DNA of 64,000 nucleotides. Source: Candidatus Helarchaeota archaeon. GTDB taxonomy: Archaea; Asgardarchaeota; Lokiarchaeia; Helarchaeales; RDOG01. Where the stretch lies: NCBI GenBank assembly GCA_019058315.1, contig JAHPZH010000001.1:71938-135937 (forward strand). The letters run 5' to 3'. This document shows positions 25,272 to 35,140 of the stretch, in pieces. A program made the translations under genes and the position numbers. Each line of letters begins with the position of its first letter. The first letter of the stretch is position 1. The notes below the pieces were generated by a model. It did no database searches and had not been told where the DNA came from. It saw nothing but the letters and a program-made list of their open reading frames with translations.

Positions 25272-27026
25272 ATGTCGACTAATCAAGAGAATGCAGTTGA
25301 AGTAACGGATTTATTGAAATATTATAATCTTTCGTCTGGTGAAAGATTAACAGCATTAGATTCTATATCTTTTAATTTAAAAACTTCCGAAATCGTAGGT
25401 ATAATAGGTAAATCTGGCGGAGGTAAAACTACCTTACTTAGAATATTAAGAGGGGTTGAACCTTTTAATGGAGGAAAATTCATTCTTCGTGATAAAAATG
25501 GTGAAATTATTTTAACTCCTGATTCACCTGAAAGTCTCTTCCGTGAAGCAAAAAAGAAGACAGTTATACATTTACAACGTTCCTTTGGTCTATGGGCCAC
25601 AACTGCTTTAGATAATGTAATGAGAAGATTAAATGCTCTAAAGACTGACGATGAAACTGCTCCATTACCAGAAGATTATACAAGTGAATATCAAGAGCTG
25701 AAGGAGAAAGCCCTTGAAATTTTAGATGCAGTAAAATTAAAACATAAAGCGGATCAAGTTGCTCCTGTTATGAGTGGTGGGGAAAAACAACGTCTAGTGT
25801 TAGCTCGACAATTAGCAATTGCAGGTTCCGAAAGAAATATGGGGAAAATATTGCTTCTGGATGAACCTGTTACTATGTCTGACCCATTAACTAAACAAAT
25901 TTCATTAGATTATATAAAGGAATTAAGAAACAAGTATAATCTTTCTATTCTTGTAGCCAGTCACCACCCCCAGTTATTGGAGTACTTAAGTGATAGAATA
26001 ATATGGTTAGAAAAGGGTAAAATTATCAAGATAGGAGATCCAAAGGAAATTGTCAAAGGATTTTTAGATAAAATGCCTGATCCAATTCCTTTAGAACCTC
26101 TTAAATCAAAAAAACCGATAATATCAGTTAAAAATGTTTCTAGGAAATTTTATACGCCTGAAGTGTTAAAGTTAGAGTTCGATATGTCAAACATAAATTT
26201 TGAAGTTTTTGACAGTGAAATTCTGGGTATAATAGGTCCTTCTGGAATTGGAAAAACAGTATTATTAGAATTACTTTCTGGAGTAACTTTACCAAAAGAT
26301 GGCGAAGTACTTTACAATATTATTGGTAAAAACGTCAATATCGGTGTGTTAGGAGAAGAAGCAATGATGTCAAGACGTAATATAAGTTATGTTAGACAAG
26401 AACTTTCGCTTACTCATAATGCAATAGTTAAAGATTTAGCTGCTGCTACATTAGGTCTTAAGGGAGAAAGAGCACTCTATAATGCCAGAAAAAAAGCGAA
26501 AGAACTTAATATTCGTGAAGAGATAATTGATGTTCTTCACCGGTTAAGTGATCTTCCCGATTCTGAGGTGAATATAAGATTGGAAAAACTTGGTTTAGAT
26601 AAAAGTATAATTCATGATTTGTTTCCAATACCTCCATGGTCAGCTATTTCAGACATAGTAATACCTATTTTTAACGAATTTGATCTCCCTTCAAAAATAT
26701 TAGAACGTAAAACGCAAGAACTTTCTGGCGGTGAAAGTATAAGAGTTGCAATTGCATTAGCTCTGCTCTCCAGCCCAAAGGTAATTATTTTAGATGAACC
26801 ATTTGGTGATTTAGATCCTAATACATTACGAAATTTAGCAAATATGATAAAAAGAGTAAATAAAATGGATGTAACCATAATAATTGTTTCTCATCATACA
26901 GAATTTCTTAAAGAAGTCACACATCGTGTTATTTATATGAAGGAAGGAAAGCTTCTTAAAATTGGAGACCCTGATGAAATTACTAAGGAATTTTTAAAGG
27001 ATAGTAGTGCAGAATTCATGTATTAA
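25272..27026 (+). CDS. tandem-NBD ABC-type ATPase without a permease domain (AtwA/component-A2-like or ABC-F-like)
   Basis: Two ABC cassettes. Cassette 1: GKSGGGKTT / MSGGEKQR / LLLDEP. Cassette 2: GPSGIGKTV / LSGGESIR / IILDEP. No hydrophobic segments. Confidence 0.8.
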   Translation: MSTNQENAVEVTDLLKYYNLSSGERLTALDSISFNLKTSEIVGIIGKSGGGKTTLLRILRGVEPFNGGKFILRDKNGEIILTPDSPESLFREAKKKTVIHLQRSFGLWATTALDNVMRRLNALKTDDETAPLPEDYTSEYQELKEKALEILDAVKLKHKADQVAPVMSGGEKQRLVLARQLAIAGSERNMGKILLLDEPVTMSDPLTKQISLDYIKELRNKYNLSILVASHHPQLLEYLSDRIIWLEKGKIIKIGDPKEIVKGFLDKMPDPIPLEPLKSKKPIISVKNVSRKFYTPEVLKLEFDMSNINFEVFDSEILGIIGPSGIGKTVLLELLSGVTLPKDGEVLYNIIGKNVNIGVLGEEAMMSRRNISYVRQELSLTHNAIVKDLAAATLGLKGERALYNARKKAKELNIREEIIDVLHRLSDLPDSEVNIRLEKLGLDKSIIHDLFPIPPWSAISDIVIPIFNEFDLPSKILERKTQELSGGESIRVAIALALLSSPKVIILDEPFGDLDPNTLRNLANMIKRVNKMDVTIIIVSHHTEFLKEVTHRVIYMKEGKLLKIGDPDEITKEFLKDSSAEFMY

Positions 27027-27037
27027 GAGGGAAAATA

Positions 27038-28309
27038 ATGTCGAAGCTTACTCCAGAACAACAAAAAAAATATGATAAAGCTCTAAAATTATATGCCAAA
27101 GCAGAGAAAATGATTGCAAAACAGAAATTTGATAAAGCAAAAGATAACTTCAAAAAAGCGATTAATGAATTCTATTCAATGCAGGCATATGCACAAGCCC
27201 AGAAAATTATTAATAAATTTGTAGAATCCGCTTTAATAGAAAAAGAATATCAAGAAGCCGCTGTTGCCTTGTATCAAGCTGCAAATATCGCCTTAATTGA
27301 AAATAAGGTCAAAAAAGCACTAGAAAATTATAAATCATCAATTAATTTTTTTATAGAACAATCAGGATTTAGCAAGAAAAATGAAGATATAAAATATAAC
27401 GCTTTATGCCTTTCTCCTCTTTGTGAAGCCGCATTAGGTAAATTTGAGTATGCAATTGATTATTTTAAAACAAACCTTAATCAAATTCCTCGCCGATTTA
27501 GAATCAAACTCCCAATTGTTGATTTTTGCACTTCAATTTTTAATACGCTTATTACTAAAAAGATTGAAAATCTAAATAATTCTAAAACAATTTTAAAAGA
27601 TTTAAAGTTACTAGAAGGCGAAACAATATTACTCGAAAATCTCATAAGTATTGCTGAACTTTATGTAAAAACTAAAATCGAATCTCGTCTAAATAAAGAA
27701 AAAATAGAAGCAGGGGATAGTTTTTCTTTAAATATTTCATTAAACTCGCCTGAAAATATAGAAATTCTTAAATATTATTTGGATTATGACACACAACGAT
27801 TAGAATTAACTAATGTACCAAAAATTTCTGAGAATAAACCTATTGAATTTATATTCGATGCTAAAGTTCAAGGGAAGGCAAAATTTGGACCTCTTTTATT
27901 AACATGTAAGGCAAAAGAAATAGAGTTTCCTTTTAAATATCAAAGCATTTTAAACATATTACCAGGGAGACCAAGACTTCAAATAGATGCTCAAAGTGAG
28001 ATAAATATATTCGAGGGTGATGCCTTTGATTTTGATTTCGAAATAACAAATAGAGGTAAAGGAGAGGCTATTAATTTAGCTGTAACACTTGAGGTTCCCG
28101 AAGAAATTATGATCATAGCAGGCACTAAAGAAAAAAAACTTTATTCCCTAAATTCTCAAGAAAATTATATTTTCACATTTCCTCTACAAGCCATAAAGAG
28201 CGGAGCTTATGAAGGAAAAATCCTTATTAGTTTTGAAATTCCTCGAGGTATTTCTAGTAAGCCGGAAGAGATAGAGGAAGTAAAAACAATTAATTTTAAA
28301 GTTACTTAA
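27038..28309 (+). CDS. hypothetical protein: helical-repeat N-terminus plus two beta-sandwich (CARDB/NEW3-like) C-terminal domains
   Basis: 423 aa. The start is 11 nt after the ABC ATPase stop. The C-terminal pattern FEITNRGKGEAINLAVTLEVPEEI is typical of CARDB-like domains. No signal peptide seen. Confidence 0.5.
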   Translation: MSKLTPEQQKKYDKALKLYAKAEKMIAKQKFDKAKDNFKKAINEFYSMQAYAQAQKIINKFVESALIEKEYQEAAVALYQAANIALIENKVKKALENYKSSINFFIEQSGFSKKNEDIKYNALCLSPLCEAALGKFEYAIDYFKTNLNQIPRRFRIKLPIVDFCTSIFNTLITKKIENLNNSKTILKDLKLLEGETILLENLISIAELYVKTKIESRLNKEKIEAGDSFSLNISLNSPENIEILKYYLDYDTQRLELTNVPKISENKPIEFIFDAKVQGKAKFGPLLLTCKAKEIEFPFKYQSILNILPGRPRLQIDAQSEINIFEGDAFDFDFEITNRGKGEAINLAVTLEVPEEIMIIAGTKEKKLYSLNSQENYIFTFPLQAIKSGAYEGKILISFEIPRGISSKPEEIEEVKTINFKVT

Positions 28310-29700: not shown

Positions 29701-30468
29701 TTGATGAAAAGATTTTTCTTTGGTCCTGTTCTTTCTCGTAGATTGGGTTTTTCTTTAGGGATTGATATATTACCCGATAAAAAGACTTGTACTTTTGACT
29801 GTCTTTACTGTGAAATAGGAAAAACTCGACGAGTTACCTCCCCAAAAACCCGTTCTCCTTTCCTAATAGAAAATAAAAAGAATTTTGAATTACAATTAAG
29901 AAATATCTTATCTCAAGATATATTAATCGATACATTAACATTTGCAGGATATTCGGGTGAGGCAACATTAAATAGTGAATTAAATACATTTTTAAACATT
30001 ACAAAATCTGTAAGATCTGACCTGCATAAAGAAAATATCCCAATATCCATTTTGACTAATTCCTCAACAATTAATTTTCCTGAAATTAGAAAAATATTAA
30101 TGAATTTTGATAATATAGTTGCGAAATTAGATGTTGGAAATCAAGCTTCTTTTATGAAGGTGAATCGTCCACATTTTTTAGTTCCACAAATTTCTGATAT
30201 TATAAATGGTTTAAAGCAATTAAGGGAGGAGCTTGATAAGAATCGACTCGTTATTCAGACTCTTTTGTTTAGTGAAAATAATGATAGAAAAAACATTGAT
30301 TCATTAATTGAAGCTTACAATATTATCAATCCAAATAAAATTCAACTTTACTCGATTGCCCGTCCACCCGCATATGCCGTAAAAAAAATAGATGGGCTTC
30401 AATTGGAACAGATAAAAAAGAATATGCAAGATGTATTAAAAACCAATATTAAAATTGAAACTTATTAA
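29701..30468 (+). CDS. radical SAM protein (small stand-alone type, function unknown)
   Basis: FGPVLSRRLGFSLGIDILPDKKTCTFDCLYCEIG contains CxxxCxxC. 255 aa. TTG at 29701 or ATG at 29704. Confidence 0.75.
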   Translation: MMKRFFFGPVLSRRLGFSLGIDILPDKKTCTFDCLYCEIGKTRRVTSPKTRSPFLIENKKNFELQLRNILSQDILIDTLTFAGYSGEATLNSELNTFLNITKSVRSDLHKENIPISILTNSSTINFPEIRKILMNFDNIVAKLDVGNQASFMKVNRPHFLVPQISDIINGLKQLREELDKNRLVIQTLLFSENNDRKNIDSLIEAYNIINPNKIQLYSIARPPAYAVKKIDGLQLEQIKKNMQDVLKTNIKIETY

Positions 30469-30584: not shown

Positions 30585-30893
30585 ATGCCAGAAATGACAT
30601 ATGTCTGCCCGCAAATAGGTAGTACAGATTATTTAGATTATGAAGAAGATACGACCTTCGAAGATCAAATAAATGAACTAAAAGAGAAATATTTACGAGA
30701 TATTCTTGATTACGTTCAGCAATTTCGAAATATACGTCAAAATATAGGATTAGATCAAATTACTGTAAAGATACACTATATTGATGCTGAAGGTATCAAA
30801 CAAACAATTGGACTTAAAACTTACGTTAAGGCAATGGCTGAACGTCATATTGATAAGATATATTGGGAACCCGAACCCATTGGAGGGCATTAA
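30585..30893 (+). CDS. stand-alone homolog of the N-terminal domain of 28936-29628, ending ...PEPIGGH
   Basis: 102 aa, collinear with residues 1-99 of the fused paralog. The Gly-Gly at residues 100-101 is followed by one His and TAA (30891-30893). Confidence 0.55.
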   Translation: MPEMTYVCPQIGSTDYLDYEEDTTFEDQINELKEKYLRDILDYVQQFRNIRQNIGLDQITVKIHYIDAEGIKQTIGLKTYVKAMAERHIDKIYWEPEPIGGH

Positions 30894-30932
30894 ACCAAAC
30901 TTTTAATATAAGGGTATATCTAGAGGAAAAAA

Positions 30933-31295
30933 ATGCAGCAAACTTCTAAACAAATCTTTGCAAGTCATATTTACGATTTGACAGTTCGACCCGGTTATTA
31001 TCGCTCTACATGGAAACTAATTAATAAAAAAATACCCTTAAAAGGAGCTTTCGGTCATTTTATGGGCAAGGATTTTCGAGTAATTGTAATAAAAATCTTA
31101 TTTAATTCAAAATATCCCGAAAATCCTCCAAAAATTATTAGCACTCCTCCTATCCGCGATGTTTGTTGGGATAATAAGGGTGTGTTACATTGGGCTAGAT
31201 ACGGGGGAGAGTTTGTATGGAGTAAATATAAAGATCACTCCAATCCATTAATTTATGTCGCAGATGAAATTACTGAAAAATATAAAACCATGTAA
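30933..31295 (+). CDS. stand-alone UBC/E2-like (RWD-like) domain protein
   Basis: 120 aa. ILFNSKYPENPPKIISTPPIRDVCWDNKGVLHW aligns with the C-terminal domain of 28936-29628, including the Cys. It has its own GAGG motif about 8 nt upstream of the ATG. Confidence 0.55.
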   Translation: MQQTSKQIFASHIYDLTVRPGYYRSTWKLINKKIPLKGAFGHFMGKDFRVIVIKILFNSKYPENPPKIISTPPIRDVCWDNKGVLHWARYGGEFVWSKYKDHSNPLIYVADEITEKYKTM

Positions 31296-31319: not shown

Positions 31320-32912
31320 TTACTTTTTAATTATTATTGCCACTAACACTAGAATTACTATCGCCATAGCACCAATTATTATCAAGAGAATAAGAGGATC
31401 AATTGGAAAACCCGCACCTGTCGGTATAGGTATAAAATTATCCATAGGTTCTGTAGACACTAATGAAACTTTTTGTGCATATATATCATAATCACTTAAG
31501 CTTCTATTATCCTGCCACGTTATGATAGCAACTCCAGAACTAACGTAAATAATCTCATGATTTTCTTGCAAACCATATTCTGTACATACTGGCAGACCCT
31601 TACCAACATATTGCAAAATACCATTTTTATCGAGCATTTGTGCATAGATTGATCCATTAGCATCTTCTTCTTTATCTATCCAAGAGATAAATGAATTTCC
31701 TGAGGAGTCGCAGCAAATCCTAGACTGTTGTTGATCACTGGGTGAAGTACAAACAGGGGTACCATTATTTCTCCATAATGTGGTGCCTATTGGGTTAATT
31801 TTTTGAGTATAGATATCCTCCTCATAAATATTTCGTAAATCCTGCCATGTAATAATTGCATTTCCCTCACTATCACAGCAAATTTTTGGATAGAATTGGC
31901 TATATTCTGCTGTACAAATTGGTGTGCCATTGAGAGTCCAATAAACAGTACCAGTTGAGTCGATTTTTTGTGCATATATATCTGTATATGTACCGTTTCT
32001 ATTATCCACCCAAGTGATAATTGCATTACCAGAACTATCACAGCAAATATCAGGCCAATATTGACTGTCAGTTGCATTACAAATTACAGTACCATTGTCT
32101 TGCAATTGTGAATGACCTGTAGAATTAATAAATTGACAATAGATATCGTTATCTGATGTTGTCATATTTCTATAGTCTTGCCAAGTAATAATTGCGTTTC
32201 CTGCACCATAAACACTAATTTTTGGAAATGTTTGGATGTTTATAGCATTGCAAATTATTTTTCCGTTAGTTGTCCATTGGACAACTCCACTCGAATTAAT
32301 TCTCTGGGCATGGATATTAGATGTTGCAAATTCATCATTTATCCATGTAAGAATCGCACCGCCTAAATTATCGCTGCAAATTTCTATCCTTGATTCATCA
32401 TTAGGCAAACCAGTAATTTGCACACCGTTGGCAGTCCATTGCGTAATCCCGTTTGCGTCCACTCTTTGAGCTTTAATATTTTGAGTATCTTCCCATGCGA
32501 TGATTGCCCCCCCAGAACCATCAGAACATATCTGGGGAAGAGTTTGAGAACCAGGAGAGTTACAAATTAATGTGCCGTTAACATCCCATAATGGATTCCC
32601 ATTTGAATCGATTCTTTGAACATAAATACTAGAAATGTCTCTGGAATCCGCCCAAGTAATAATTGCACCACCAGTTCCATCACTGCATATTTCAGGATTA
32701 TATTGGTCTTGTGGCGTTTGTACACATACAGGTGTACCATTAGCTGCCCATTGCGTACTTAAACCATTAGCCTTGAGTTTAGATTTCTCATCAATTTTTA
32801 AAAGTAAGACATTTTGATTGCTAAACCCTGTATATGAATTTATAGCTAAAATGGAAAACATCAAGATTGGGATTAAAATTAAAAACCTTTTCTTCATTTT
32901 TAACAAATCCAA
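31320..32912 (-). CDS. secreted 8-repeat (propeller-like) protein with a C-terminal TM/KK sorting-signal-like tail
   Basis: Signal-like N-terminus. Eight repeats of NGT-IC-----Q--P-IC-D--G-AIITW-D-R----IY-Q-I---G. The C-terminus is ...TGAGFPIDPLILLIIIGAMAIVILVLVAIIIKK (motif, TM, short basic end). Confidence 0.7.
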   Translation of the reverse strand: MDLLKMKKRFLILIPILMFSILAINSYTGFSNQNVLLLKIDEKSKLKANGLSTQWAANGTPVCVQTPQDQYNPEICSDGTGGAIITWADSRDISSIYVQRIDSNGNPLWDVNGTLICNSPGSQTLPQICSDGSGGAIIAWEDTQNIKAQRVDANGITQWTANGVQITGLPNDESRIEICSDNLGGAILTWINDEFATSNIHAQRINSSGVVQWTTNGKIICNAINIQTFPKISVYGAGNAIITWQDYRNMTTSDNDIYCQFINSTGHSQLQDNGTVICNATDSQYWPDICCDSSGNAIITWVDNRNGTYTDIYAQKIDSTGTVYWTLNGTPICTAEYSQFYPKICCDSEGNAIITWQDLRNIYEEDIYTQKINPIGTTLWRNNGTPVCTSPSDQQQSRICCDSSGNSFISWIDKEEDANGSIYAQMLDKNGILQYVGKGLPVCTEYGLQENHEIIYVSSGVAIITWQDNRSLSDYDIYAQKVSLVSTEPMDNFIPIPTGAGFPIDPLILLIIIGAMAIVILVLVAIIIKK

Positions 32913-33012: not shown

Positions 33013-34086
33013 ATGCGAGTAATTATAGATTCGTCGGTAATTGAATCATGTAAGCAAACAATTCAAGAATGTTATGGTGAAAAAGCGTTTAAAGAAGTAG
33101 GGGGGTATATTTTAGGAATGTTTGACGGCGAAAATTTCCAAGTTAAATCCCTTTATCTTGATAAATATGCTGAATCGACTTCTATCAGAATTAAACTAAG
33201 CGTTGATGCATTCCATGAAGTTGAGGAAATACTTTCCCAATCTCCTGAAATGATGTATATTGGGACATGGCATGTTCATCCTGGGACAGATAAACCCGCA
33301 TACTCAAATGTTGATGTTTCAACTCTATTTTTAGAACGGGTAATTATAGACACAGATAATCCTGAAAGTTTGAAATGCCCAAAGATTCATATAATTTTTA
33401 ATAATTCTCTAACTGAATATAGTTGTTATACTATGGATATATTTTTTAATTTTTTATGCGAACCTCTTGATTCATCTGTTGCCAAAAATTTAGTTGAAGC
33501 TGAATTGCTTGAAATTGGGCTAGATGCCCTTACGGAATCTAAAACCTTGCTAAAACTAGAAACTCTTGAAAGTTATATCAATTTACAAAAAAATATCGAA
33601 GAAGTGTATAATAATCTCGATTTAATTTCTGACCAAATCAATTTTGCACTTGACTTTTTTAATGAACTTGAATGGTATAATAAAGTTGAAAATAAAATCG
33701 AAAAAATAATTAAGAATGAGATTAAAAATGGAGAAAGAATTGGAGTAATCTCTTCTGAAAACGAGAAAAAAATCGAAAGCTTGAAATATAGACCTAAGAA
33801 TATAAAAAATTCATATACAGATGGATCTTTAGTAGGTTTTTGGGTATTATTTCCATACGAAAGTATCAGCGATATGTTTTTGAAAATTTTTTATGCTAAT
33901 TTCTTCAAAAAAATTGAGACTGAACCTGGAGATGTCTTCTTATTCTTCCTAGTTCAAAAAATTAAGGAAGAAATCATGATTAAACCGTTTTTTTTAAATT
34001 TCACATCATTTGAAGGAATATCATATATAGAATTAGAAATGACTTTGATTGAGGATGACAATGAAAATAATGTTTCAGAATCCTGA
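33013..34086 (+). CDS. JAB/MPN+ (JAMM) metalloprotease with a long helical C-terminal extension
   Basis: E28 (KEVGGYILG) plus H87-x-H89-x8-S98-x2-D101 (WHVHPGTDKPAYSNVD) is the JAMM motif. About 230 extra C-terminal residues. Confidence 0.8.
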   Translation: MRVIIDSSVIESCKQTIQECYGEKAFKEVGGYILGMFDGENFQVKSLYLDKYAESTSIRIKLSVDAFHEVEEILSQSPEMMYIGTWHVHPGTDKPAYSNVDVSTLFLERVIIDTDNPESLKCPKIHIIFNNSLTEYSCYTMDIFFNFLCEPLDSSVAKNLVEAELLEIGLDALTESKTLLKLETLESYINLQKNIEEVYNNLDLISDQINFALDFFNELEWYNKVENKIEKIIKNEIKNGERIGVISSENEKKIESLKYRPKNIKNSYTDGSLVGFWVLFPYESISDMFLKIFYANFFKKIETEPGDVFLFFLVQKIKEEIMIKPFFLNFTSFEGISYIELEMTLIEDDNENNVSES

Positions 34087-35140
34087 TACGGGTGAAACAA
34101 TATATATCGAGGATGAGGAGCTTCTTATCAGAGATATTGCCAATAAAATAATGAAAGAATACAATCTAGAAAAACCACCAATCTTCTTCACCCTTATGAA
34201 AGAAGACCCAGTATCAGAAACTTATCTAGAAGAAGATGATAAATTAAAAACAATTAATGAAGAAAAATTGGATGTAAAGACACCAATATGGTGGCGATCG
34301 TCAGAAATTGATCTAGATTTAATTTATAAACTTCGAACAGAACGCTATGATAGATCGGGTTATGAGCTAGAAAAAATCGGAAAAACCAAGGTATTAATTG
34401 CAGGTGTGGGATTATTAGGAGCGGATATTGCGTTTGATTGCGCAGTTTTAGGAATAAAGGACCTTACAATAATTGATTATGGGTCTGTAGATTGGTTTAA
34501 TATCTATCGACAAAGTCTCTATTCCAAAAAAGATGTATTTAAATCGAAAGTTGAAGTGGCAAAAGAAAATCTCGAGGATATGGGGGGTGTAAATGTTAAA
34601 TCATTAAAAATTGAGATTCCAAGTTTTATTTATCTGCCAGAAGATAAAAGTATAATACAAAATTCCATTTTAAAAATTGAGCCTGAAGTTAAAAAATGTG
34701 ATATAATAATTACTGCTCTTGATACATTCAGCGCTAGAATGATAATGCAAACTTTAGCTTTAGCAAATGATAAAATCCTTATTAATACGGCGGCTGGTCT
34801 AGTAGGTGGGGTAGTTCAATTAGTGAGAATTAAGCAAAATGATCCTTGCTTGGCATGTGGTATTTATTTTGATAGAAATCAAGATGTGGGTGCGTGCACT
34901 TTGGCATCGTTTGGTACTCCTAAAATCATATCTGGAATTACAATGGAAATTTTGACAAATCTGATTGAAGAAAGAGAAATCAAATATAACCATTTTAAAT
35001 ATATTCCCCAAACTTACCAAATAGAACAAAGTAATTTTATAAAAGGCAAAGAGTTCTGTGATTTTTGCGATAGGGAGAAAGGAATTATATTTAAATATAA
35101 AAATGGAGAAAAAAAAGCCCTAATTGATTGGTTATATTGA
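34049..35140 (+). CDS. E1-like (ThiF/MoeB/UBA family) adenylyltransferase with an N-terminal beta-grasp-like domain
   Basis: Nucleotide-binding VLIAGVGLLGADIA, IDYGSVDWFNIYRQ, Zn-type CLACG and CDFCD pairs, and candidate catalytic Cys GACTLASFG. The N-terminal ~80 aa (KIMFQNPDTGETIYIEDEELLIRDIANKIMKEYNL...) has a bb-a-bb pattern. It overlaps the JAB gene by 38 nt (26 nt if it starts at 34061). Confidence 0.75.
   Translation: MRMTMKIMFQNPDTGETIYIEDEELLIRDIANKIMKEYNLEKPPIFFTLMKEDPVSETYLEEDDKLKTINEEKLDVKTPIWWRSSEIDLDLIYKLRTERYDRSGYELEKIGKTKVLIAGVGLLGADIAFDCAVLGIKDLTIIDYGSVDWFNIYRQSLYSKKDVFKSKVEVAKENLEDMGGVNVKSLKIEIPSFIYLPEDKSIIQNSILKIEPEVKKCDIIITALDTFSARMIMQTLALANDKILINTAAGLVGGVVQLVRIKQNDPCLACGIYFDRNQDVGACTLASFGTPKIISGITMEILTNLIEEREIKYNHFKYIPQTYQIEQSNFIKGKEFCDFCDREKGIIFKYKNGEKKALIDWLY

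Follow-up and report, generated by a model that had tools for sequence, protein, structure and literature searches.

Does a gene that is divided just behind a Gly-Gly pair encode, in its first half, a ubiquitin-like modifier that has been parted from its own E2-like enzyme? The question is raised by a 64,000-nt stretch of DNA (hereafter the window, meaning the whole stretch at its full length) from Candidatus Helarchaeota archaeon (assembly GCA_019058315.1, contig JAHPZH010000001.1, positions 71,938-135,937, forward strand), in which a fused 230-aa protein of two domains has a paralog whose N-domain and C-domain are encoded by separate open reading frames (ORFs) of 102 aa and 120 aa (Table 1). 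The host genome is a 5.8-Mb Asgard assembly, and close orthologues of the proteins carry the labels Promethearchaeota or Helarchaeota. Ubiquitin-like (Ubl) modifiers end in Gly-Gly (GG) and are often made with C-terminal extensions or as fusions that are trimmed by proteases, and an earlier reading of the letters of the window by a model (the sequence-only reading) had proposed the N-domain as such a modifier. This proposal is supported by the predicted fold, the exposure and conservation of GG, the alternation of split and fused forms and the exclusion of an artefact; each refuting condition named in that reading and open to computation turned out in its favour. The 102-aa protein is probably a Ubl modifier with GG as its reactive C-terminus, made either in fusion with its cognate E2-like Cys enzyme or separately with a short dispensable tail.

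The 102-aa ORF ends with ...KIYWEPEPIGGH (...EPEPIGGH-stop), in which Gly100-Gly101 (encoded at 30882-30887) is followed by a single-residue tail, His, and by the stop codon TAA (30891-30893). In the fused paralog the corresponding stretch between the two domains reads ...KIYWIPEPIGG(98-99)SISSKIK.... When the fused protein was compared by BLASTP with each half of the split pair, 42% identity (E 5e-22) was obtained for the N-terminal ORF and 41% identity (E 4e-26) for the C-terminal ORF, both far beyond chance. The 120-aa ORF contains Cys78 (31164-31166), a YPxxPP motif and an NPL motif. A Shine-Dalgarno-like GAGG lies in the spacer at 30923-30926, six nt 5′ of the ATG at 30933, which confirms the restart after 39 nt with its own ribosome-binding motif that the sequence-only reading had described; its coordinates and sequences of the fused and split forms were likewise exact on re-reading of the window.

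The split is real and old. The arrangement of two ORFs is kept in the orthologous loci L003 (75-78% amino-acid identity) and L010 (83-88%), and the spacers of the window, L003 and L010 each carry a GAGG-type motif 6-8 nt before the ATG and two to three in-frame stops. Comparison of these three loci gave, for both halves, a proportion of nonsynonymous differences (pN) of 0.07-0.14 against a proportion of synonymous differences (pS) of 0.68-0.88, with synonymous sites saturated, and both halves are thus under strong purifying selection. Contigs of three other metagenomes cover the junction with the stop codon unchanged and with indels confined to the spacer, whereas no contig over the junction came from run X1, in which matching words were most numerous (share 1.00). 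Since each spacer holds two to three in-frame stops, read-through cannot rebuild the fusion, and remaking of the fusion by stop-codon read-through or frameshifting was ruled out by these stops together with the spacer indels. The shared reading frame of the two ORFs and their distance of just 39 nt are what would be expected of a copy of the fused gene that is decaying as a pseudogene, or of an assembly or sequencing error; against this stand the identity of merely 41-42% between the copies, which marks them as old paralogs and speaks against a recent nonsense mutation, the conservation of the split across orthologues at 75-94% identity, the conserved ribosome-binding motif, the in-frame stops, the low pN and the stop codon retained in independent metagenome contigs. 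The pseudogene or artefact reading, whose probability we put at practically nil, is effectively refuted by pN/pS and by the metagenome contigs. A functional two-gene arrangement rather than a random nonsense mutation, as the second ribosome-binding site had been taken to indicate, is therefore borne out by the orthologous loci, by pN far below pS and by the conserved GAGG, and the one-gene alternative through read-through or sequencing error is excluded.

The 102-aa protein was modelled with AlphaFold2 (predicted local distance difference test (pLDDT) 89, predicted template modelling score 0.80), and a b-b-a-a-b-b-a-b topology was obtained in which the last strand runs to residue 98 and I-G-G-H forms a low-confidence tail; GG lies three residues past the strand. 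All of the 50 matches listed by Foldseek against PDB were ubiquitin-superfamily beta-grasp domains, including Ring1B RAWUL, ubiquitin (target-normalised template modelling score about 0.7), SUMO1/2, FERM-F1 and PB1. The fused protein (pLDDT 83) was predicted to have the same N-domain, followed by disordered residues 98-105 (pLDDT <50) and a C-domain composed of a helix, four strands and a C-terminal helix (a-bbbb-...-a); with this whole model as query, Foldseek returned ubiquitin-like domains and the VPS37A UEV-like domain. When PDB sequences were searched with an N-domain profile, no meaningful match emerged, polyubiquitin appearing only at E about 0.5, and the fold assignment therefore depends on the AlphaFold2 models and Foldseek, by which the N-domain is confidently predicted to be a beta-grasp fold. 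A C-terminus buried in some other fold had been named as a finding that would speak against a modifier; in the models the C-terminus is not buried, the strand ending at residue 98 with an I-G-G tail behind it and the linker that follows being disordered.

Relatives of the proteins were collected by an exhaustive HMMER search of 1.84 billion representatives, which returned only 29, and by profile searches of 90%-identity clusters, which added about 70. All are annotated as "hypothetical" and have no Pfam domain. Scans of Pfam, NCBIfam and PADLOC assigned no significant family to the fused protein or to either the N-domain or the E2-like domain; the gathering thresholds of PF00240 and other curated Ubl families were not reached, with sub-threshold UBX and UBL_ZFAND1 matches in single members. 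The family is patchily distributed, being present in 7 of the 301 genomes sampled across the phylum. Three architectures were found. Some members are fused, with a length of about 220-260 aa; others consist of an N-domain protein (about 100-130 aa) and a separate C-domain protein (about 120 aa) as a pair; and P0028 (659 aa) joins N-domain, E2-like domain and JAB in a triple fusion.

Among the fused proteins, G98, G99, C178, Y-P-x-x-P-P and N-P-L show little or no variation in the alignment. Conservation of GG in orthologues and alternation of split and fused forms, which the sequence-only reading had left to be looked for, were both found. GG occurs in about 50 of the 52 N-domain-bearing sequences first collected, is near-invariant over the family down to about 25% identity, and is present in every free-standing N-domain protein with a readable C-terminus (38/38). 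What follows it is variable: in the free-standing forms the tail has 0-24 residues (median 4) of unrelated sequence, and one protein (P0098) terminates exactly at GG, while in the closest fused orthologues an invariant K-x-Y-W-x-P-E-P-I-G-G is followed by a linker of 2-9 residues that varies in length and sequence. A maximum-likelihood tree of the N-domain requires three or more switches between fusion and separation. Split pairs are present in at least two lineages: one is the clade to which the split pair of the window belongs, the other that of the fused paralog, represented by L011 with an N-domain that terminates in GGTSSDE and whose ORF overlaps the E2 ORF. Within one clade of free-standing Ubls (P0073-P0096) a semi-conserved four-residue tail, hydrophobic-x-x-F/L, was observed after GG (ILHF, MLHF, LSDF, IRNF, RENF, LTDF), a pattern more suggestive of a pro-peptide that is recognised than of chance leftovers of a linker.

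For the C-domain, a profile search against PDB sequences returned only UBC/UEV proteins among the 60 matches shown, at modest E values (1e-3 to 0.1). The domain has a single invariant Cys in a D-x-C-[FW]-D context, and the conservation of this residue suggests catalytic activity. Two proteins with Ubl, E2-like and JAB parts in one chain (P0028 and P0019, the latter of 445 aa) have Ser and Arg, respectively, in place of the otherwise invariant Cys; the Ser of P0028 recalls the oxyester E2s of bacterial Bub systems. A further E2-like domain was observed at the C-terminus of an HD-CE (PF24391) protein whose gene immediately precedes that of the Ubl-E2 fusion in bacterial-type operons (L008:336-2081, L004:6198-7907, L005:6149-8008 and L009:211-1986). 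This C-terminus is homologous to the present E2-like domain (hhalign 77%, E 2e-5, 103 columns) and retains YP..P, G.L.W and NPL without the Cys, and it could be an inactive UEV-like decoy or receptor on a presumed effector. In the literature, a search on "HD-CE" turned up nothing but medical papers on other subjects.

The two enzymes expected to act on such a pair are encoded downstream. The JAB protein has an intact JAMM motif (E28, H87-x-H89 and S98-x-x-D101) and is predicted to be the processing and deconjugating enzyme. Among PDB sequences the E1 was matched best by ATG7 (6e-14), and its ...DRNQDVGACTLASFG... ('...VGACT...') aligns with ...DRTLD-QMCTVTRPG... of ATG7 in such a way that the Cys falls on the ATG7 catalytic Cys (Cys507); G-A-C-T is also present in the E1s of the bacterial relatives. 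Because this Cys is aligned with that of ATG7 and conserved in bacteria, the chemistry of the system is expected to be thioester-based. The affinity to ATG7 is not exclusive, since generic ThiF models scored higher in NCBIfam. The best matches of the E1 and JAB proteins in the defence library were Cap2 and Cap3 models. The E1 begins with a conserved N-terminal extension of about 95 aa (34049-34345; MKIMFQNPDTGETIYIE...TPIWWRSSE) with a strand-strand-helix pattern and without Gly-Gly, which was also found between the JAB and E1 domains of bacterial JAB-E1 fusions. Its first 35 residues were matched with the Ubl domain by BLASTP (E 7e-6) and hhalign (probability 46%) over 34-37 aligned residues, a weakly supported resemblance that is suggestive only of a Ubl-like extension.

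Table 1. Features of the split locus and its surroundings in the window.
Feature	Position	Strand	Basis or remarks
Fused paralog, 230 aa	28936..29628	-	Ubl 1-97, G98-G99, disordered linker 100-107, E2-like 108-222 with Cys178
Radical SAM gene, compact	29701..30468	+	Between the paralogs, immediately upstream of the Ubl gene; also at L010:9111-9887 and L003:1-117
Free-standing ubiquitin-like (predicted beta-grasp) protein, 102 aa	30585..30893	+	ORF, sequence, AlphaFold2 model, Foldseek, orthologues with GG and variable tail
Intergenic spacer, 39 nt	30894..30932	+	Created by fission; three in-frame stops (TAA, TAA, TAG)
Free-standing E2-like (putative UBC/UEV-fold) protein, 120 aa	30933..31295	+	Profile against PDB sequences; purifying selection
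JAB/JAMM metalloprotease with family-specific C-terminal extension	33013..34086	+	Weak Pfam Prok-JAB match; PADLOC JAB models 1.6e-10
ThiF-type E1	34049..35140	+	Pfam ThiF 3e-31; overlaps 3′ end of JAB gene

A core of Ubl and E2 (fused or split), JAB and E1 was found in nine loci, six of them from Asgard archaea (L003, L010, L012, L013, L015 and L016) and three on bacterial-type contigs (L004, L008 and L009). On the Helarchaeota contig of L010, genes for a radical SAM protein, Ubl (102 aa, ending in GGL), E2-like protein (121 aa), JAB (350 aa) and E1 (359 aa) form a contiguous co-directional run from which the fused paralog diverges. L012 and L013 have Ubl, E2-like, JAB and E1 genes (with a gap of about 2 kb before E1 in L012), and L015 and L016 have the fused gene, JAB and E1. 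On the GC-rich bacterial-type contigs HD-CE precedes the fused protein, behind which come separate JAB and E1 genes in L004 and a 667-aa JAB-E1 fusion in L008 and L009; in L005 only a ThiF-type E1, and no JAB, was called downstream of the fused gene. JAB lies directly beside the Ubl/E2 genes in L010, L012, L013, L015, L016 and L004, and in L003 an 82-aa ORF is all that lies between them. Considered as an alternative modifier, this 82-aa ORF was rejected: it does not end in GG, and neither the window nor L010 contains it. The minimal operons include no further Ubl gene.

From these observations we infer a course of cleavage, adenylation, thioester transfer and conjugation, and with it the biological role. 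The JAB/JAMM protease would cut after Gly-Gly and thereby either remove the one-residue tail or free the Ubl from its E2. The exposed Gly would be adenylated by the E1, the Ubl would then probably be handed to the E1 Cys that is aligned with the ATG7 catalytic Cys and moved to the invariant Cys of the E2-like protein, and it would finally be conjugated to target proteins.

Several points weigh against this modifier reading. A split inside any interdomain linker leaves GG and a short tail, and the position of the split is no independent proof. Two family members are without strict GG (GA in P0007 and WG in P0024), an alignment of about 30 sequences underlies the predicted fold of the N-domain, and some fused paralogs (L006 and L014) are remote from both E1 and JAB genes. 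An unrelated 530-aa gene stands between the split pair and the JAB and E1 genes of the window; since the E2-like and JAB genes are adjacent in L010, L012 and L013, and parted by the 82-aa ORF only in L003, this gene is taken to be an insertion into the operon. The E2-like domain has no HPN motif, and the hidden Markov model (HMM) alignment places its Cys upstream, by a few residues, of where canonical E2s have theirs. It also has no C-terminal helix pair. The HPN motif and the helix pair are missing as well in Cap2, BubB and other non-canonical E2s (PMC11601596).

The same domain could be a permanent, non-conjugated ubiquitin-fold accessory of the E2, acting in cis or in trans in E1 docking, regulation or substrate recognition, with GG as a hinge, while the E1 activates canonical ubiquitin or the C-terminus of another protein, as happens to the CD-NTase in Type II CBASS. 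The weak likeness of the E1 extension, which lacks GG, to the first strand-strand-helix of the N-domain would fit such a role, as docking domains may be a theme of the system; so would the matches of E1 and JAB to Cap2 and Cap3 models, the other PF00240 ubiquitins of the genome, and the fact that a split in the linker is expected of any two-domain protein. A hinge, however, leaves unexplained why GG is invariant exactly three residues past the last beta-grasp strand and why a free-standing form ends precisely at GG (P0098), and it gives no account of the obligatory JAB in every core operon, the Ubl-E2-JAB fusion included. Nor is another substrate at hand: the canonical ubiquitins adjoin their own E1s, and the C-terminus of the HD-CE effector, which was considered as a CBASS-like E1 substrate, was rejected because its ends are not conserved and have no terminal Gly. 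We regard an accessory role as unlikely. Still less probable, and indeed very doubtful, is a sulfur carrier of the ThiS/MoaD/CysO/QbsE type, in which the JAB-trimmed GG would be adenylated and thiocarboxylated by the ThiF-type E1 and would feed a biosynthetic pathway with the neighbouring radical SAM enzyme. The sulfur-carrier systems CysO/Mec and QbsE/QbsD likewise have a beta-grasp protein with a GG end, an E1 of the ThiF type and a JAB that trims the tail, and a radical SAM gene adjoins the Ubl gene in the window, L003 and L010; yet L012, L013, L015, L016 and every bacterial-type operon lack this gene, the conserved core is without rhodanese/sulfurtransferase or cofactor-biosynthesis genes, and the E2-like partner with its invariant Cys, which sulfur-carrier systems do not need, is universal and often fused. 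The radical SAM gene, a neighbour in those three loci of closest relationship only, is probably not a core component.

Further genes were noted around these loci. The 530-aa protein (31320-32912, minus strand) between the E2-like and JAB genes of the window is a secreted repeat protein with a C-terminal transmembrane helix. An ABC ATPase with tandem nucleotide-binding domains and a TPR/CARDB protein are encoded upstream of the fused paralog (window 25272-28309) and are syntenic in L010 (L010:11812-14856). In L006 and L014 the orphan fused paralog likewise has a TPR423-like gene at a distance of 3-4 kb, and the fused copy may have a recurrent neighbour here. Elsewhere in the host genome, PF00240 ubiquitin-like genes lie beside other ThiF-type E1s (C10:102973-104834 and C2:155887-157174), and eight ThiF-domain genes are present in total; several separate ubiquitin-like systems therefore coexist in this genome. 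The surroundings of L004 and L005 contain NB-ARC, SMODS, QueC and transposase genes. Because the bacterial operons sit among NB-ARC, SMODS and transposase genes and carry the HD-CE effector, the system possibly has a role in conflict or defence.

A modifier of this kind would extend the inventory of Asgard ubiquitin-like pathways by one component, in the group of archaea that are the closest prokaryotic relatives of eukaryotes. A gene repeatedly cut in nature just after Gly-Gly, with both halves kept functional, is an informative natural experiment; the presence of fused and split paralogs in one genome, together with the system's single E1 and single JAB, offers a clean testable setting, which could be used for studying the co-evolution of ubiquitin-like modifiers, precursor tails and E2s. 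A more far-reaching interpretation is that the system is a previously unrecognised thioester-based Ubl conjugation pathway (ATG7-like E1, non-canonical Cys E2 and self-encoded Ubl-E2 pro-protein) present in Asgard archaea as well as in bacterial defence islands, that it is related, as an archaeal system, to the lineage behind the eukaryotic ATG7/ATG10/ATG12-type non-canonical machinery, and that its repeated Ubl-E2 fission shows how free modifiers arise from pro-protein fusions; we consider this decidedly improbable as a whole.

Among known systems, the nearest layout is that of Type I Bub (6E.1), which consists of BubAB (Ubl-E2), BubCD (JAB-E1) and BubE, and in which BubAB is cleaved by the JAB domain of BubCD at an experimentally mapped site immediately behind a conserved Gly (Ye, Gong, Chambers, Corbett 2024, PMC11601596). 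Release of a Ubl from a fusion with its own E2 by JAB has so far been demonstrated experimentally only in bacterial Bub, and a related layout had been predicted earlier. Shared with Type I Bub are the N-terminal fusion of the Ubl to its E2 with a conserved Gly at the junction (in the fused paralog and most family members), a JAB encoded with the E1 (fused in L008 and L009, separate in L004, and as overlapping genes in the window), and a non-canonical E2 without the C-terminal helix pair, with no E3. Bub, however, has a Ser E2 and an E1 without Cys (oxyester), whereas an invariant E2 Cys and an ATG7-like E1 Cys are present here. No DUF6527/BubE was found among the Pfam annotations of the neighbours at any locus, HD-CE being present in the bacterial relatives instead; there is no HMM-level relationship (no Pfam, NCBIfam or PADLOC match for the Ubl or E2 parts); and the present family occurs in Asgard archaea and is repeatedly fissioned into two genes. 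Judged by sequence, the family is thus not a member of Bub, because it has Cys for Ser, an E1 Cys, no DUF6527 and no HMM-level similarity to curated families. It would be a cysteine-based counterpart to the oxyester Bub and is itself covered by no Pfam, NCBIfam or PADLOC model.

With Bil (BilABCD) and the Caldiarchaeum/Asgard-type archaeal ubiquitin operons, the split form shares separate Ubl, E2, JAB and E1 genes and a JAB that trims the Ubl tail and exposes Gly, trimming being a prediction in the present case. In Bil, BilA is trimmed by BilC (10.1101/2023.09.26.559546), but its E1 combines tandem adenylation domains with a Cys domain of its own. In the archaeal ubiquitin operons the ubiquitin belongs to PF00240, the E2 to UQ_con and the E3 to the RING type, and the present proteins fall into none of these Pfam families. 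With ATG7, to which the E1 is closest among solved structures, it shares a catalytic Cys aligned in the C-T-[VL] crossover motif, but the N-terminal domain of ATG7 appears to be absent, and the extension has just about 95 aa. A non-canonical E2 without the HPN motif is shared with Cap2/Cap3 of Type II CBASS and with ATG3/ATG10; unlike in Type II CBASS, E2 and E1 never share one polypeptide, the system has a predicted beta-grasp modifier of its own, and no CD-NTase belongs to the core, the only candidate being a weak SMODS match several genes away in L005. Fusions of Ubl and E2 also occur in FtsH-ternary conflict systems, for which release of the Ubl by the JAB of the operon was predicted bioinformatically (Kaur, Burroughs, Iyer, Aravind 2020, PMC7159879), but those systems carry a RING E3, an EAD1 adaptor, MoxR/vWA/FtsH and caspase-like effectors, none of which was found here. 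The family is best filed as an unannotated Cys-based variant of the known theme of a Ubl-E2 pro-protein with JAB and E1, occurring in Asgard archaea and bacterial conflict islands.

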